This document shows, piece after piece, positions 2,402 to 34,668 of a stretch of 53,728 nucleotides of DNA. The notes below the pieces were generated by a model that ran no database searches, was not told the origin of the DNA, and saw nothing but the letters and a program-made list of their open reading frames with translations. The translations under genes were made by a program, and so were the position numbers. Numbering within the stretch: the first letter of the stretch is position 1; every line of letters begins with the position of its first letter. This stretch comes from Escherichia phage ES2-BCU-3: sequence record PV733669.1; one strand, written 5' to 3'.

Positions 2402-3849
2402 TGAATCTCGACTTCCACCTGCACGACAGACAAGGTGCCGCTCTGCAGTCTCAGGCAACTGAGATTCTGTACGGCGGTGCTGCAGGTGGTGGCAAGTCCC
2501 ACCTTATGCGTGTAATGTCCATCATTATGTGCTGCATGATTCCTGACTTGCAGATTTATCTGTTCCGACGCAACTATAATGACTTGACGGCTAACCATAT
2601 GGTTGGACCCACAAGTTATCCTGCCTTGCTGGATGGCATGTGTAAAGCCGGCAAGTGTAAGATTAACTATTCCAGTAACACAATCAAGTTCTGGAATGGC
2701 GCAAACATCAAGCTGTGTCACCTGCAGTATGAGAAAGACATCTATACCTACCAGGGTGCTGAGATTCACGTTCTGCTGATGGATGAGCTTACTCACTTCT
2801 CAGAAACGATGTATCGATTCCTTCGTAACCGTGTTCGACTCGGTGCACTGAAGGTACCTGAGAACTTCTTCCGGCCGCTGCCTCTCATCTTTTGTGGGTC
2901 GAACCCCGGCGGTGTAGGACACAACTGGGTTAAGCGTACGTTTGTAACTGCTGCTCCTCCAATGAAGATTGTTAAGCAGGACAAACGTGAAGGTGGTATG
3001 GCTCGACAGTACATCCCAGCTAAAATGACTGATAACCCGACGCTGATGGAAAACGACCCTGACTACGGCGACCGTCTTGAAGGTCTGGGTGACCCTGCTC
3101 TTGTGTCTGCAATGAAAGAAGGTGACTGGGATATTGTTGCTGGTGGTGCACTTGACGATGTATGGTCGACTAAATGTATCATACCTCGTATGCGTATACC
3201 TCGCGGATGGACAATTGAACGTTCTCTTGACTGGGGTTCTACTCACCCGTTCTCTGTCGGCTTCTGGGCAATTGCTAACGGCGCGCCTCTTATGGACGAC
3301 GAAGGCAATGAGTACTATATACCGCGCGGCTCTATTATCCGTATTGCTGAGTGGTATGGTTGTTCTGAAAAAGAAGCTAACAAAGGTATTAAGCTGTCCG
3401 CCGTAGAAGTTGCTGAAGGTATTCTCCGAATCCAGGAGAACCTGCAAGCTGGCGGATGGATAGATAGTAATGTCAACGCAGGTCCTGCTGATGGTCAAAT
3501 CTACGCGAGCAAAGAGAAGGACGTGGAGACTATTGCGAAGAAAATGGAAGACGCCGGAGTAACCTGGGTCAAAGCCGATAAATCGCAAGGGTCGAGAATA
3601 AATGGCCTCGAGCTATTCCGTCAGCTCCTGAAAAATGTTAAGATGGACGAAACGGAAAAGCCGGGTATTTATTTCATGGAAAACTGTCCGGCAGCAATAA
3701 ACACGTTGCCAGTTCTTCCTCGTGATAAGAACAACACTGAGGACGTAGATACCAACTCGGAAGACCACGTATATGATGATTGTCGTTACATGGTTGTAAG
3801 AGGTATCAACCGTTATACTACATCAATCAAGATTAATATGGGACGGTAA
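2401..3849 (+). CDS. terL: Terminase large subunit
   Basis: Walker A GGAAGGGKS near the N-terminus and Walker B-like VLLMDE; 482 aa; followed directly by a portal-sized gene. Confidence 0.8.
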   Translation: MNLDFHLHDRQGAALQSQATEILYGGAAGGGKSHLMRVMSIIMCCMIPDLQIYLFRRNYNDLTANHMVGPTSYPALLDGMCKAGKCKINYSSNTIKFWNGANIKLCHLQYEKDIYTYQGAEIHVLLMDELTHFSETMYRFLRNRVRLGALKVPENFFRPLPLIFCGSNPGGVGHNWVKRTFVTAAPPMKIVKQDKREGGMARQYIPAKMTDNPTLMENDPDYGDRLEGLGDPALVSAMKEGDWDIVAGGALDDVWSTKCIIPRMRIPRGWTIERSLDWGSTHPFSVGFWAIANGAPLMDDEGNEYYIPRGSIIRIAEWYGCSEKEANKGIKLSAVEVAEGILRIQENLQAGGWIDSNVNAGPADGQIYASKEKDVETIAKKMEDAGVTWVKADKSQGSRINGLELFRQLLKNVKMDETEKPGIYFMENCPAAINTLPVLPRDKNNTEDVDTNSEDHVYDDCRYMVVRGINRYTTSIKINMGR

Positions 3850-3850
3850 A

Positions 3851-5413
3851 ATGTCAATACCTTCAGCGACTACTCCGAATGTTGGTTACCAACGTCCTGA
3901 GTTAACGAAGAATTCTGGCAAATACAATATGATTAAAGATTGTATTGAAGGCCAGCAGGCTGTTAAACGTCGTAAAACGTTTTATCTTCCGCAGCCAGAC
4001 CCTACTAACTGTACGGCGGAAAACATTCGCCGTTATGAACAGTACCTTGAGCGTGCTGTATTCTATAACGTGCTGCAGCGTACCCTGTCAGGTATGACTG
4101 GTCTTGTTTTCCAGCAGCCACCTGAGATGCTCATGCCGGATGATATGGAAGTCCTGCGTGTAAATATCGATGGTGCTGGTATTGGTGCAATCCAACAGAT
4201 GCGCCGTTGCTTTAAATCTGTATTGGCCTTTGGTCGCGCAGGTATACTTACTGACTTCCCGCCGGCTCGTGTCGACAGCGAAGGCAAGCAACTTGGTTTT
4301 ACTCGCCAAGAGCTGATGGATGGTACAGTACAACCTACCGTTACACTGTACATGCCGTGGCAAGTCATTAACTGGCGTGAAGAGTATCGCGAAGGTAAAG
4401 TTGTACTGACTCAGGTAGTTATCTGTGAGCAGATTCCTGGCGTTACAGACGGATTCCAGCAGGACTACACTCCTGTGTGGCGCCACCTGTTCCTTGACAG
4501 CAATGGTGATTGCACACAAACAATCTGGGTTAACAAGGGTGACCCCAAAGCTGATAACGTTTCTGGCGGCGCACTGTACGTTGCACAGCAGACTGCGGTT
4601 ATGAAAGACTCGAACGGTAAGCCTCTCAAGTTTATCCCGTTCAAGTTCATTGGTTCTGAAACCAACAGTGCTGAGATTGACCCGCCGCCAATGTATGACC
4701 TGGCTGTGCTGAACATCGCGCACTATCGTAACTCAGCTGACTACGAAGAATCATGCTTTATCACAGGTCAGCCCACAGTATGGGCGTCTGGTCTGACAGA
4801 AGCATGGGTCGAAGATGTTCTCAAGGGTGAACTGCGCCTTGGTTCTTACGGCGGTATTCCGCTGCCAGCTAATGCTGCTGTGGGCATGATTCAGACGAGC
4901 CCTAACACCCAGCCGTTCGAAGCAATGAAACAGAAAGAAGCGCAGATGATTGCTATCGGTGCTCGACTGATTCGTGAGAATGGTAAAGTAGAACGTCGTG
5001 AAGTTGAAATTAAAAACGAAGCAGCATCTGAAGCCTCGTTAATCGTAACTGTTGCGCAAAACGTTGAAGCAGCATATCGTGAAGCACTTGGTTGGTGCGC
5101 TCTGTTCTACGGGCATGACCCCAAAGAACTGACTATCAACCTGAGCTATAACTTCATCTACAGCCAGATGACATATCAGGAACGTCAGCAGCTGGTAAAT
5201 GAATGGCTCGCAGGTGCAATCACCTTCACCGAAATGCGTAGCAACCTGAAACAAGCTGGCATTGCTAAACTTACTGATGATGAAGCTAAGAAAGCCATTG
5301 ACGAAGAGATGGCTGAACGTGACGCACGGGAAGTAGCAAAAGAAGCTGAAAAGAATGCTCAAGCAGCTAAGAACAACAATGTGGAAGAAAATAATCCAGA
5401 AAAAGTTGAGTAA
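3851..5413 (+). CDS. Portal protein (putative)
   Basis: 520-aa ORF directly downstream of terL, the conserved position of portal genes; acidic C-terminus. Confidence 0.55.
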   Translation: MSIPSATTPNVGYQRPELTKNSGKYNMIKDCIEGQQAVKRRKTFYLPQPDPTNCTAENIRRYEQYLERAVFYNVLQRTLSGMTGLVFQQPPEMLMPDDMEVLRVNIDGAGIGAIQQMRRCFKSVLAFGRAGILTDFPPARVDSEGKQLGFTRQELMDGTVQPTVTLYMPWQVINWREEYREGKVVLTQVVICEQIPGVTDGFQQDYTPVWRHLFLDSNGDCTQTIWVNKGDPKADNVSGGALYVAQQTAVMKDSNGKPLKFIPFKFIGSETNSAEIDPPPMYDLAVLNIAHYRNSADYEESCFITGQPTVWASGLTEAWVEDVLKGELRLGSYGGIPLPANAAVGMIQTSPNTQPFEAMKQKEAQMIAIGARLIRENGKVERREVEIKNEAASEASLIVTVAQNVEAAYREALGWCALFYGHDPKELTINLSYNFIYSQMTYQERQQLVNEWLAGAITFTEMRSNLKQAGIAKLTDDEAKKAIDEEMAERDAREVAKEAEKNAQAAKNNNVEENNPEKVE

Positions 5414-32535: not shown

Positions 32536-33128
32536 TACAGCAGTTCCAGTTGGTTAGGGTTAGTGTGTGCATTGATAATTGCCTGGATGTCAGGTTTGAC
32601 CCAACCTTCTGGCTTAACAATGTCCTGGCCTGATTTGTGCTTACTGTTGCTTGCATCAGGTTTAGCACGTTCTTTCGCCATGTTGGCTTTCTGTACAGCG
32701 TCCCATGCATCATCCAGCGGCCAGTTGTTTGCAGCACACCAGTTGATAAGATGGATGATAAGCTGTGCCAGGCGGTCGCAGTGAGTGTCTTCGGTATCTT
32801 TAACATATACACGAAGACCCTTGGCATCAAACTTCTCCATCCAGCTGCATGGGTCAATGAAATGAATAGGGTATTCAAATTCATTTGAGAACCAGGTAGT
32901 CTGGTCATACAGGTAGAGAGTACCTGCAGCGATATAGATAAGGTCAACAATGCCGTCCAGGAATTCAGCTTTGTCGCCTTCCTTGATGGCTTTCTCAATC
33001 TCATCCATCTCTTCGATGAGACGGTCATAGCGAAGTTTGAACTCAGGCTTACCGCCTTCACTGATAGGTTTGAGGTCAAACTTCTGGTGGAAAGCAGTTA
33101 CACCTGCAGCAATTTTACTGAATCGCAT
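32535..33128 (-). CDS. MazG-like nucleoside triphosphate pyrophosphohydrolase (putative)
   Basis: EEMDEIEKAIKEGDKAEFLDGIVDLIY resembles the MazG/all-alpha NTP-PPase acidic helix; ATG at 33128 with AAGGAG 7 nt upstream (track ORF extends to 33200); TAATG junction with thyA. Confidence 0.45.
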   Translation of the reverse strand: MRFSKIAAGVTAFHQKFDLKPISEGGKPEFKLRYDRLIEEMDEIEKAIKEGDKAEFLDGIVDLIYIAAGTLYLYDQTTWFSNEFEYPIHFIDPCSWMEKFDAKGLRVYVKDTEDTHCDRLAQLIIHLINWCAANNWPLDDAWDAVQKANMAKERAKPDASNSKHKSGQDIVKPEGWVKPDIQAIINAHTNPNQLELL

Positions 33129-33513
33129 CACGGAGCTCCTTACATACAGTTTCGATGAATTTACGTTTGGTCTCAGTAGACCAGATAATATGACGGGCAC
33201 GTTCTACAACGTCGTAACGGTCTTTACCCACAGGAAAGGGAACAATGAAAAGGCCAGTACGGGAGATGCGCTTGATATACGGAAACTTGCAGCGCATGGT
33301 TGTTTCAAATGCTGTGAAGGCACGTTGTACGCCAGCTGTGAATTTTACCTTATCAAACTCATATTCAATGTCTTTGGCATACTGACACACTTTGGCGAAA
33401 GCATCTGCAGGCAGATAGTCTTCACGACCAGTGTTATTGACAAAATCTATTTGACCCTGCAGACGCAGAATCCAGATGTGGTAATATGATTCGGCAACAC
33501 GTTGTAAGTTCAT
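33115..33513 (-). CDS. Hypothetical protein
   Basis: 132-aa ORF with AGGAGAG RBS and its own promoter. Confidence 0.5.
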   Translation of the reverse strand: MNLQRVAESYYHIWILRLQGQIDFVNNTGREDYLPADAFAKVCQYAKDIEYEFDKVKFTAGVQRAFTAFETTMRCKFPYIKRISRTGLFIVPFPVGKDRYDVVERARHIIWSTETKRKFIETVCKELRDAIQ

Positions 33514-33541: not shown

Positions 33542-33570
33542 ATTATACTACATCACTCTCTAGGGGTAAA
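33542..33570 (-). promoter_or_regulatory. Sigma70-like promoter (TTTACC-17-TATAAT), minus strand
   Basis: Reverse complement of ggtaaa(33565..33570) and attata(33542..33547). Confidence 0.5.
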
Positions 33571-33600
33571 GCACTTTTTTATATTCGGGTAAAAGAAAAA

Positions 33601-33624
33601 GGACCAGCGCAAACTGGTCCTTTT
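33601..33624 (-). terminator. Rho-independent terminator (works on either strand)
   Basis: Stem ggaccag(33601..33607)/ctggtcc(33614..33620), loop cgcaaa; minus-strand reading is followed by TTTTTCTTTT. Confidence 0.7.
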
Positions 33625-34087
33625 GGCAGGGCTGGATGATTACACAAGGAGTAGAAACAATGCAACTGTCAACGTCATGCACTTCCGGTACACTTGCTGT
33701 GCGCTCTCCTCGGCGAAGTATATAGCGTTACACTTATCACAAGGATTAAGAGAAGAGCACACAGCAAGTAACCAGCTTAGTTGTGGTGTTTCAGCGACCT
33801 GGTGTTATTGTGGATAACCTGCCATCCCGCGAGGATGTCAAAAAGGAAAATGCCAAAACACCACAACTAAATTGGTTGACCGCCATCTACATCCGGCGCC
33901 AGGGTCAAGGTAGCGAGCCAATACCCCTTATGGCGTCCTGGGACTCAAACCCAGGCATCATGGCATTTCCCAAATCTCGGTCAGCGAGCAGAATTGAACT
34001 GCATTCACTGGACACCCTCACTGAACACCAACGCACCAGGCTTAATCAGTTTGTTGAAAAGGAGAGTTGTAAGGATGTCCATTGAAT

Positions 34088-34105
34088 GCACCTCCGAAGA
34101 GGTGC
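34088..34105 (-). other. Stable UUCG-tetraloop hairpin just 3' of the 156-aa gene
   Basis: Minus strand reads GCACCUC-UUCG-GAGGUGC; no U-tract follows, so more likely an RNA-stability or processing element than a terminator. Confidence 0.5.
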
Positions 34106-34123
34106 GTTCGTGATCAGCGCCGA

Positions 34124-34594
34124 TTATTCTGCGTCGTTGTCAACGTCAGTTTCGGTATTACCGCCAGCCAGTGCAGCCGCTTCAGCTTTAGCAGCTTCGG
34201 CTTTCTGACGAGCTTTTTCAGCTTTCTCTTCAGCTTTGCGAATCTGCTCAGCAGCTTTCGCTTCGGCTTTTTCAGCTTTAGCTTTAGCACGCGCTTCAGC
34301 TTTCAGACGCTTCTCTTCGGCTTTAGCCGCATCACGTTCTGCTTTCGCAGTATCGATGCGTTTAGCCAGAACTTTACCGGTCGCTTTACGCCAGTAGGTC
34401 AGCTGAGAAGAAACGGTGCCGCGGGACATTTCGGTTTGTGCAACCACTTTGTCCATAACGTCAGAGCTGGATTCGCCTGCTTCGTGTGCCTGGTCAGCCA
34501 GGTCCCAAACAAAACGCGCACCAGTGCCAGCTGCCGGGTACATAACGCCGTTTACTTCTTCTTTACCAGATACAAAAGTCAGTTTCTCGCTCAT
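34124..34594 (-). CDS. Ala/Lys/Glu-rich low-complexity protein
   Basis: 156 aa; C-terminal half is near-repetitive KAE/AKA helix (AKAEEKRLKAEARAKAKAEKAEAKAAEQ...); GAGGA RBS; own promoter. Confidence 0.55.
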   Translation of the reverse strand: MSEKLTFVSGKEEVNGVMYPAAGTGARFVWDLADQAHEAGESSSDVMDKVVAQTEMSRGTVSSQLTYWRKATGKVLAKRIDTAKAERDAAKAEEKRLKAEARAKAKAEKAEAKAAEQIRKAEEKAEKARQKAEAAKAEAAALAGGNTETDVDNDAE

Positions 34595-34639: not shown

Positions 34640-34668
34640 AGTATAACCCTTTTAAAAAAGTATGTACA
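34640..34668 (-). promoter_or_regulatory. Early-type promoter (GTGTACATA -35 region, TATACT -10), minus strand
   Basis: Minus strand reads GTGTACATAC-N15-TATACT; tgtaca at 34663..34668, agtata at 34640..34645. Confidence 0.5.

Follow-up and report, generated by a model that had tools for sequence, protein, structure and literature searches.

What is encoded by some 460 nucleotides (nt) with hardly any open reading frame (ORF) inside a phage replication module is the question raised by positions 33626-34087 of Escherichia phage ES2-BCU-3 (PV733669.1), whose 53,728 nt, taken in full length, are referred to as the window and supply all coordinates below unless another record is named. An earlier note on this DNA had considered either a non-coding RNA, independent or derived from a 3' untranslated region (UTR), or a replication element. 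The best overall explanation of our results, to which we assign a probability of about 0.6, is a 3' UTR with a tRNA-like core that would act in trans as a mimic of the tRNA elbow. The identity of this core is considerably firmer, as it is very probably a structured non-coding RNA belonging to a family with two T-arms.

The region had been regarded as one 460-nt unit. It is structured, as proposed, but it is modular, consisting of a UNCG hairpin (H1), a long stem (P2), the 129-nt tRNA-like core (33877-34005, minus strand), the lineage-specific modules M3 and M4 and a terminator; only its 5' third is widely conserved, and this part reaches past 34087 to 34105. Four phage lineages have the region: Loughboroughvirus (the window and SE4), Rosemountvirus (BP63 and relatives), the fHy-Eco03/KM/KE25 group and the IMG/VR contig L056, and all four have in common H1, P2, a central block and the terminator.

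The tRNA-like core and its covariation

The two T-arm-like hairpins noticed before on the minus strand (33988-34002 and 33938-33954) proved to be the key feature of the region. Model R1, built for the core, gave one match in the window, at 33910-34005 of the minus strand (55.7 bits, expectation value (E) ~6e-10), which was also the sole significant one, chance pattern matches scoring at most 21.6 bits; because the long P3 hairpin of the window is not spanned by the model, the true 3' end of the core is placed at 33877. Read along the minus strand, the core opens with T-arm 1 (33988-34002; GCAG-UUCAAUU-CUGC) and an invariant UCGC linker (33984-33987), continues with the 5' strand of helix P1, UGACC (33979-33983), a bulge with a conserved GG, GAGAUUUGGGAAAU (33965-33978), and the 5' strand of helix P1b, GCCAU (33960-33964), and then enters T-arm 2 (33938-33954; CUGGG-UUUGAGU-CCCAG). 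Hairpin P3 follows (33901-33927; GGGGU...ACCCU), which is variable, occupies the position of a closed acceptor-like arm and carries GCUCGCUACCUUG in its loop; the J3/1b strand GGCGCCGGAUGUAG (33887-33900) and the 3' strands of P1b, AUGGC (33882-33886), and P1, GGUCA (33877-33881), complete the structure.

This arrangement agrees with that of a whole family, whose order is AAU, T-arm 1, UCGC, the P1 5' strand (UGRCC), a bulge GAGNUU(N)UGGUAAR, the P1b 5' strand, a short linker, T-arm 2, P3, YUGGUGCRWA, the 3' strands of P1b and P1 (GGYCA) and, often, a U-run. The T-arm 1 signature of the family, a stem of 4-5 bp with the loop UUCRAYU followed by UCGCUGRCCGAG, lies in the window at 33976-34002, and the P1 and P1b pairings UGACC/GGUCA (UGRCC/GGYCA in the family) and GCCAU/AUGGC flank the GG-containing bulge. 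RNAalifold recovered T-arm 1, P1 and T-arm 2 unaided from 18 diverse short-form copies. In alignment A3, 95.5% of the cells of these three helices are paired and 43 are double changes, compared with 10.5 in column shuffles (none of 500 reaching the observed value) and at most 9 when the partners were slid by 1-3 columns. T-arm 1 stems across the family read GCAG, GCGG, UCGG, GGCG, GCCG, UCCG, ACGG or CCCG. Within P1, the partner is invariably U in A-type copies and mostly C in G-type ones, a switch from A-U to G-C across subfamilies, and a copy from a Cellulophaga phage, found by BLAST and not through P1, has a fully compensated P1 (UUUAU/AUAGG). The stem of T-arm 2 changes and yet pairs in every lineage (GAGG/CCUC in BP63, GCCUG/CAGGC in fHy-Eco03, ACCGG/CCGGU in L056).

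P1b and P3 were misaligned by MAFFT, and a permutation of matched versus mismatched partners was therefore used instead; matched P1b partners paired better than mismatched ones with p < 1/5000. P1b reads GCCAU/AUGGC in the window, GCCGU/ACGGC in BP63, GCCCU/AGGGC in fHy-Eco03 and AGGUU/AACCU in L056, and CCG/CGG, GCU/AGC, CAG/CUG, CGG/CCG, GCCAC/GUGGC and others across the family. P3 pairing, read by hand, is ACCGG/CCGGU in fHy-Eco03 and GGCAGU/ACUGCC in L056. Two other foldings were discarded: a closure like that of transfer-messenger RNA (tmRNA), proposed by RNAalifold between a 5' GGCG and the ACGCC downstream of T-arm 2, does not persist in fHy-Eco03 or L056, and the covarying switch from A-U to G-C in P1, together with the full compensation of P1 in the Cellulophaga copy, speaks against a mini-hairpin CUCG-CUGAC-CGAG after T-arm 1.

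A tertiary pair of tRNA joins T-loop base C56 to D-loop base G19. Correspondingly placed in the core, base 3 of the T-arm 2 loop and the second G of the YUGG strand covary: the pair is C-G in most copies, among them BP63 (loop UUCGAUU with strand CCUGGUG), U-A in the window, SE4 and ZCSE2 (UUUGAGU with CCGGAUG) and G-C in the fHy-Eco03 group (UUGGAUU with AAUCUGC). Three metagenome copies couple a change of the second loop base from U to G with one of the first strand G to A. It follows from this covariation that T-arm 2 and the strand would form an elbow of the tRNA type. Taken together, the comparisons show four covarying helices, the existence of the family and at least one predicted tRNA-like elbow, while a second one, between T-arm 1 and the GG bulge, is only suggested.

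Distribution and comparison with known RNAs

The core is found far beyond the phage group of the window. The strict pattern GCAGTTCNNNTCTGCTCGCTGNCCGAG retrieved 23 stretches from IMG/VR, on contigs of 5-123 kb, and a relaxed one, in which the T-arm stem was left free, 35 viral and 85 metagenome stretches; after removal of copies lacking a complementary T-arm 1 stem, which are chance matches inside genes, 68-77 distinct copies remain. Overall, the family is put at about 60-70 distinct sequences from phages and metagenomes. Among 185,579 species genomes there was a single match, on a Rosemountvirus-like contig binned in a metagenome-assembled genome (MAG). BLAST with 41 nt of the core added the Cellulophaga phages phi13:2 and phi19:3 and the Rhizobium phages RHph_N38 and RHph_I1_6. 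The element begins 3 nt after an annotated tRNA-Cys in phi13:2 and 10-12 nt after a tRNA-Gln in RHph_N38, and is unannotated in both. More generally, a tRNA on the same strand ends 4-12 nt upstream in 18 of the 55 distinct non-Rosemount copies whose upstream sequence is long enough (this set still includes three loci of the Rosemount/Loughborough group missed by the H1 filter), and an opposite-strand tRNA in none; several of the tRNA-preceded copies have another tRNA downstream. Other copies come after a gene's stop codon and have a U-run at their end, like 3' UTR elements. Rosemount- and Loughboroughviruses themselves have no tRNA genes according to ARAGORN.

Some of these neighbourhoods have features of their own. 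In L084 (~3400-3440, minus strand), L086, L083 and L062 no tRNA is found upstream, but an extra T-arm hairpin lies just upstream of the element, and that of L084 is again followed by UCGCUGA, as if a unit of T-arm plus UCGCUGA had been duplicated in tandem. In the IMG/VR contigs L069, L070, L074, L076, L078 and L080 (100-123 kb) the element follows a tRNA-Ser-like gene, and the proteins encoded nearby, as read by eye, resemble a set for salvage of nicotinamide adenine dinucleotide (NAD), namely nicotinamidase-, phosphoribosyl pyrophosphate (PRPP) synthetase-, nicotinamide phosphoribosyltransferase- and NAD synthetase-like proteins.

Rfam covariance-model and tRNA scans, which had been suggested as a check, returned no match for the element. 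Rfam 15 gave no relevant match in the region of the window at E up to 10, nor in eight further loci at E up to 5, and neither ARAGORN nor Rfam, at the gathering threshold or in E-value mode, reported anything for the element in the window and 20 other loci; ARAGORN found no tRNA or tmRNA gene in the window, where RF00005 had no match at E up to 10. No description of the family was found in the literature searched. The core family is restricted to phages, absent from Rfam 15 and not described in that literature.

Likeness to known tRNA-shaped RNAs is nonetheless extensive. The core occupies the niche of canonical phage tRNAs (tRNA arrays, same strand, tRNA-like spacing) and has the T-arm sequence GUUCGAUUC, but unlike a canonical tRNA, with its 7-bp acceptor stem with free ends and its D-, anticodon- and T-arms, it possesses only T-arms, two of them, and no anticodon arm or acceptor stem. 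As in the tRNA-like domain of tmRNA and in tRNA mimics such as the tRNA-like structures of plant viruses and mascRNA, a T-arm and a stemless analogue of the D-loop would build the elbow; unlike these RNAs, the core lacks an acceptor stem with free ends, a CCA and a tag reading frame, and both ARAGORN and the tmRNA models of Rfam were negative. The phage T4 RNAs rnaC and rnaD (species 1 and 2) are likewise small stable RNAs without assigned function, located on the same strand directly after the tRNA genes of a cluster, and a T-arm-like hairpin is found towards the 3' end of rnaC. Homology to them was rejected, as R1 gave only local T-arm matches of at most 12 bits in the T4 cluster and sequence and structure are not common to both. 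The beginning of rnaD (L182 3054-3172), AAUGAGAAACCGGGUCGCUACCGGUAAG, does recall UCGCUGACC...GGUAAG of the family and GCUCGCUACC in the P3 loop of the window, but the covariance model argues against homology.

A close parallel, drawn from published descriptions, is YrlA, known from Salmonella, Mycobacterium and some phages: an RNA of ~100 nt with a stem-closed, permuted tRNA-like domain, tertiary pairs of the T-loop/D-loop type, no anticodon and no free acceptor end (PMC4201824). Its domain has the order T arm, acceptor stem (AS), D arm, closed by a stem whose 5' strand carries a protein-binding motif (PMC4201824). In the core, T-arm 2, P3 and the GG strand, enclosed by P1b and P1, follow one another in a matching order, but the D element is stemless, an additional T-arm stands outside the closing stem, a second GG loop is present in the bulge, and most contexts have no Ro60 gene nearby. 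None of the families in Rfam 15 matches the core; whether that release holds a YrlA model was not confirmed.

The transcript and what the core may do

The core appears to be part of a structured 3' untranslated RNA of ~500 nt (34105-33597, minus strand) of the upstream gene for a protein of 156 amino acids (aa), since the promoter-like site lies upstream of that gene, no further such site was found between the gene and the terminator, and the terminator is followed by a new promoter. The transcript is likely to start at a sigma-70-like consensus match (34640-34668, minus strand; TGTACA-17-TATACT, 9/12 positions, by consensus match only) upstream of the 156-aa gene. At the other end, an intrinsic terminator (33591-33624, minus strand) combines a GC-rich hairpin with a 12-bp stem (33597-33624) and the U-run UCUUUU at the end of the unit, and is conserved in all lineages; this hairpin, like the UUCG hairpin at 34088-34105, is present as first reported. 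The downstream promoter (33542-33570, minus strand; TTTACC-17-TATAAT), annotated as such in three records, starts the next unit, whose first gene encodes a 132-aa protein, and bounds the element. The minus strand has a minimum free energy (MFE) of folding with z = -6.75 (none of 100 shuffles being as stable), versus z = -4.73 for the plus strand, and G-U pairs and compensatory changes fit a minus-strand RNA only. The view of a non-coding RNA derived from a 3' UTR is thus borne out by the strand-specific changes, by the lack of a promoter-like site of its own and by the coding analysis.

That analysis found no convincing ORF on either strand, as had been anticipated, and none conserved across the four lineages. 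As to conservation in related phages, another suggested check, the region is ~82% conserved in 59 phage records, the core extending far beyond the group, although it carries numerous indels whose length is not divisible by three; the multi-lineage alignment contains many of 1 or 2 nt. When seven representatives were compared in six frames, only fragments of 12-33 aa were common to them, in overlapping frames on both strands, and the longest ORF of the region in phage yarpen has 40 aa. GenBank records disagree, S144 and vB_SenM-1 having three or four tiny ORFs on the minus strand, ZCSE2 and SE4 a single one of 91-107 aa on the plus strand, and AEV23, brorfarstad, SPLA11 and PiR nothing. The 25-codon ORF singled out earlier (34005-34082, minus strand) does exist, and its ATG and the GGAGG of the GGAGGTG site 7 nt upstream are invariant; a coding role is contradicted by a predicted peptide which, read by hand from the alignment, varies from 13 to 57 codons and changes frame between lineages, and by an RNA fold in which GGAGG is locked in the stem of H1 and the first codons form P2, with compensatory changes. 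From the small indels, the discordant annotations, the short common fragments and the variable 25-codon ORF it follows that there is no conserved protein predicted in the region, and small protein-coding genes, whether this ORF or the plus-strand one annotated in ZCSE2 and SE4, are a most improbable explanation in spite of the invariant start signals and of the ORFs entered in several records.

A replication origin, or another element acting at the level of DNA, deserves equally little credit. Its attraction lay in the position between the helicase and polymerase genes, in the long inverted repeats and in a perfect DnaA-type 9-mer, TTATCCACA, which is indeed present on the minus strand (33809-33817) as the sole perfect copy in the window and is invariant in every lineage having M3. 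Both repeats described before are there and are longer than described: that of 33692-33706 with 33755-33769 extends to 33692-33711 with 33750-33769 (20 nt, 90%), and the perfect 15-mer of 33777-33791 with 33856-33870 lies inside 33770-33791 with 33856-33877 (22 nt, 91%); a third one pairs 34000-34021 with 34069-34090. But the 9-mer is at chance frequency (14 matches with at most one mismatch in the window versus 14.2 expected), no cluster of boxes, iterons or AT-rich unwinding element accompanies it (local GC 0.46-0.51), and the pair-preserving variation of the region uses G-U pairs, meaningless in duplex DNA. The 9-mer is the loop and 5' arm of a small hairpin of M3, GUUAU-CCACA-AUAAC, whose stem tolerates a change from U-A to U-G, viable in minus-strand RNA only, and M3 itself is missing in L056 and relocated in the fHy-Eco03 group.

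As to its function, the core cannot decode, having neither anticodon nor acceptor end, and the elbow and near-invariant single-stranded motifs, maintained in phages whose hosts are of different phyla, speak for its recognition by a universal host factor reading tRNA shape. Its persistence in phages devoid of tRNA genes speaks against a function in tRNA processing purely in cis. We therefore favour a tRNA-elbow mimic acting in trans. Such a core would be a stable RNA that is cut from the UTR or, in other phages, from tRNA precursors, or that persists as the protected 3' portion of the transcript; lacking anticodon and acceptor end, it would bind a host factor reading tRNA shape, either an enzyme that processes or modifies tRNA or a defence nuclease that targets it, as decoy or tether. 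This last step is tentative and, taken by itself, rather unlikely. Codon usage and escape from tRNA-cleaving defence systems are the current explanations of phage tRNA genes; a conserved tRNA-shaped RNA unable to decode, which lies in the same arrays and persists in phages without tRNA genes, points to a second phage use of tRNA shape, be it decoy, tether or enzyme hijacking. It is tempting to speculate, at somewhat less than even odds, that the core represents an undescribed, widespread class of phage tRNA mimics with two T-loops and two GG loops, found in tRNA arrays and 3' UTRs of phages infecting Proteobacteria, Bacteroidota and many uncultured hosts, and acting in trans on a universal tRNA-recognising host factor, for example as a decoy for tRNA-targeting immune nucleases or as a tether redirecting tRNA processing or decay enzymes. 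Being compact (95-135 nt) and with a clear consensus, the RNA is directly testable, and it accounts for a stretch annotated inconsistently in GenBank with spurious small ORFs. The family could also seed a covariance model for the annotation of phage genomes and offers RNA structural biology a new natural example of T-loop/D-loop architecture.

Several points weigh against the favoured explanation. The transcript is deduced from sequence, and so are its ends and any processed small RNA; moreover, no conserved phage protein accompanies the element across lineages. The invariance of the T-arm 1 loop and of UCGCUGNCCGAG is partly by construction, because both were fixed by the search patterns; locating the P1 3' strand by complementarity biased the P1 helix, a bias offset by the Cellulophaga copy and by the constant position of the strand before the U-run or the next tRNA; and the G-C version of the tertiary pair in the fHy-Eco03 group rests on an alignment anchored at the UGC motif. 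Salmonella phage rivia (L009, MT074438) has a natural deletion from the GG bulge to the middle of M3, which removes P1b, T-arm 2, P3 and the P1 3' strand, and SPHG1 (L008, MW413353) has kept H1 and part of P2 and P3 but has lost both T-arms; since both isolated phages grow without an intact core, it is not essential in laboratory culture, but accessory. Finally, as Rosemount- and Loughboroughviruses are without tRNA genes, a tRNA-processing role in cis cannot be general.

The main rival, though unlikely, is that the core and the hairpins act only in cis at the 3' end, stabilising or defining the end of the upstream transcript (the 156-aa mRNA here, tRNA precursors elsewhere) by blocking 3' exonucleases, by directing cuts of RNase E, RNase P or RNase Z, or as a branched terminator. 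The dispensability of the core in rivia, its constant location 3' of a gene or tRNA of the same strand, 4-12 nt after the tRNA in 18 copies, the U-run directly after the P1 3' strand in many copies (GGUCAUUUUUUUU) and, in the window, the 3' UTR position without a promoter of its own all suit this explanation. For such a task, however, simple hairpins would suffice, whereas the near-invariant single-stranded motifs and the tertiary pair maintained across host phyla point to a specific partner; moreover, the real terminator of the window is 250 nt downstream, and the element is therefore not the terminator there. A far less probable possibility is that the element is a functionless, decaying tRNA remnant or a self-cleaving ribozyme trimming the 3' trailers of upstream tRNAs. 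The tRNA-like T-arm sequences, the constant short gap after tRNAs and a 1.4-kb ORF-poor slot with a tRNA-Met in contig L059 could be read in this way, but four covarying helices and a covarying tertiary pair kept across phages of three host phyla make purifying selection evident, no Rfam ribozyme family matches, and the element is retained by phages without tRNA genes.

A role like that of Y RNAs would be a narrower version of the favoured trans-acting mimic, and we consider it improbable. By analogy with YrlA, whose inner domain has the same T-AS-D order and whose closing stem carries the protein motif on its 5' strand (PMC4201824), that strand of the core would bind a Ro60-type protein, host Rsr or phage DUF2828, and so tether an exonuclease; phage Ro60 proteins with Y-like RNAs have been reported (PMC12135203). 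The Y-RNA motif in the closing stem is CGAA, or GNCGAAN0-1G (PMC4201824, PMC12135203). All copies of the element have CCGAG instead, that is CGAG, and the Cellulophaga phage UUGAG. In favour of this role, UG(A/G)CCGAG presumably resembles the vertebrate Ro contact GGUCCGA, and we take a stem of 5' and 3' strands followed by a 3' U-run to be Y-RNA-like. On the protein side, a Ro-like protein with DUF2828 and DUF7788, confirmed with Pfam in the six large contigs named above, is encoded a few kb from the element in one unrelated lineage only, and not adjacent to it; its homologues in other phages are labelled Ro-like RNA-binding proteins. A Y RNA would be expected within a few kb of a same-strand Ro60 (TROVE) gene. 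In the near-identical genome of AEV23, the 50 kb covered (of 55.6 kb) have neither a TROVE nor a DUF2828 annotation, and no copy of the element was found in Felixounavirus EC6 (NC_027369), which has a Ro-like gene directly before its tRNA cluster. With one lineage only and none in EC6, a general association of the element with Ro-like DUF2828 proteins was rejected, and the extra T-arm outside the closing stem is a further departure from the Y-RNA scheme. The EC6 locus (L183 9959-14638) consists of the DUF2828 gene, annotated as RNA-binding protein, and a 3.2-kb unannotated stretch with at least 15 tRNA genes according to Rfam; homologues of this protein occur in 711 phage records.

Flanking modules and genomic neighbourhood

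H1 (34088-34105, minus strand) is a 7-bp hairpin with a UNCG tetraloop, UUCG in the window and UACG in relatives, whose stem is invariant in the four lineages and sequesters GGAGG; as a search key it retrieved the same phage group only. P2 (34003-34087, minus strand), a stem-loop of ~19 bp containing the 25-codon ORF, is contiguous with H1 and with T-arm 1, with no linker. Its pairing, read by hand, is kept with different sequence: GGAC/GUCC in the window, GAGU/GCUC in fHy-Eco03 and GAGCACU/AGUGCUC with a different inner helix in L056. The apical loop (34022-34068) has a conserved GCCUGGUGCGUUGG and a CUCCUU stretch; the former is reminiscent of YUGGUGC in the core, and the pyrimidine stretch CUCUCCUUUU is partly identical to the anti-Shine-Dalgarno sequence. 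An alternative pairing of 17 nt (88% complementary) joins 34101-34117, the 5' half of H1 and its upstream flank, to GGUGCGUUGG of the apical loop (34021-34037) and competes with H1; its centre, AACGCACC/GGUGYGUU, is retained in Rosemountvirus by hand comparison with BP63. This could be a conformational switch.

M3 (33770-33876, minus strand) is a lineage-specific hairpin module of ~105 nt with 22-nt arms and two inner hairpins, one of them carrying the DnaA-type 9-mer; in fHy-Eco03, KM and KE25 it is situated between P2 and T-arm 1 and not after the core. M4 (33692-33769, minus strand), a long hairpin with arms 33692-33711 and 33750-33769, is found in Loughborough- and Rosemountvirus, not in the fHy-Eco03 group or L056. 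In both modules, one-sided changes give G-U pairs on the minus strand. With the DnaA-box hairpin as a search key, GGTTATCCACARTAAC had 32 matches in IMG/VR, of which only the four known relatives are real and the rest are due to chance. M3 was also considered as a host repeat or a miniature inverted-repeat transposable element, and rejected: it is single-copy in the window, and of the sequences in 5,426 E. coli genomes only two "plasmids" of ~53 kb contain it. These belong to complete assemblies (H150, NZ_JBVNBN010000003.1; H151, NZ_CP067310.1), carry M3 at 82-83% identity and have the size of a Rosemountvirus genome; they are probably phage genomes carried by, or co-assembled with, the host.

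The genome is assigned to Loughboroughvirus (ZCSE2/S144-like). The region and its flanks are 99-100% identical to Klebsiella phage AEV23 and to Salmonella phages PK3, ZCSE2 and S144 of that genus, and ~82-84% identical to about 50 Rosemountvirus genomes. All genes around it are on the minus strand, in the order helicase, a 77-aa ORF, the 156-aa ORF (34124-34594), a gap of 610 bp, the 132-aa ORF (33115-33513), a MazG-like pyrophosphohydrolase, thymidylate synthase and DNA polymerase. The 156-aa protein, whose 3' UTR the structured RNA would be, belongs to phrog_28664, has no assigned function and is rich in Ala, Lys and Glu in its C-terminal half; a homologue is virion-associated by mass spectrometry according to the fHy-Eco03 record.

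Searches anchored on the 132-aa and 156-aa proteins retrieved close relatives and the contigs L056-L059 only. In L059 (IMGVR_UViG_3300020045_011081, 3388-4804), whose 156-aa homologue is 66% identical, the slot between this gene and the MazG-like gene comprises ~1.4 kb poor in ORFs, with a genuine tRNA-Met (4614-4689) and another T-arm-like hairpin near 4050; model R1 has no match there. The Rosemountvirus version of the region is nearly unchanged in L081 (JAEWER010000021.1), a 34-kb contig in the MAG "Bacillota bacterium OH_PBlB_152", and in PP583539.1 ("Listeria phage 220426122051"), which suggests a binning error in the former and a wrong host label in the latter.

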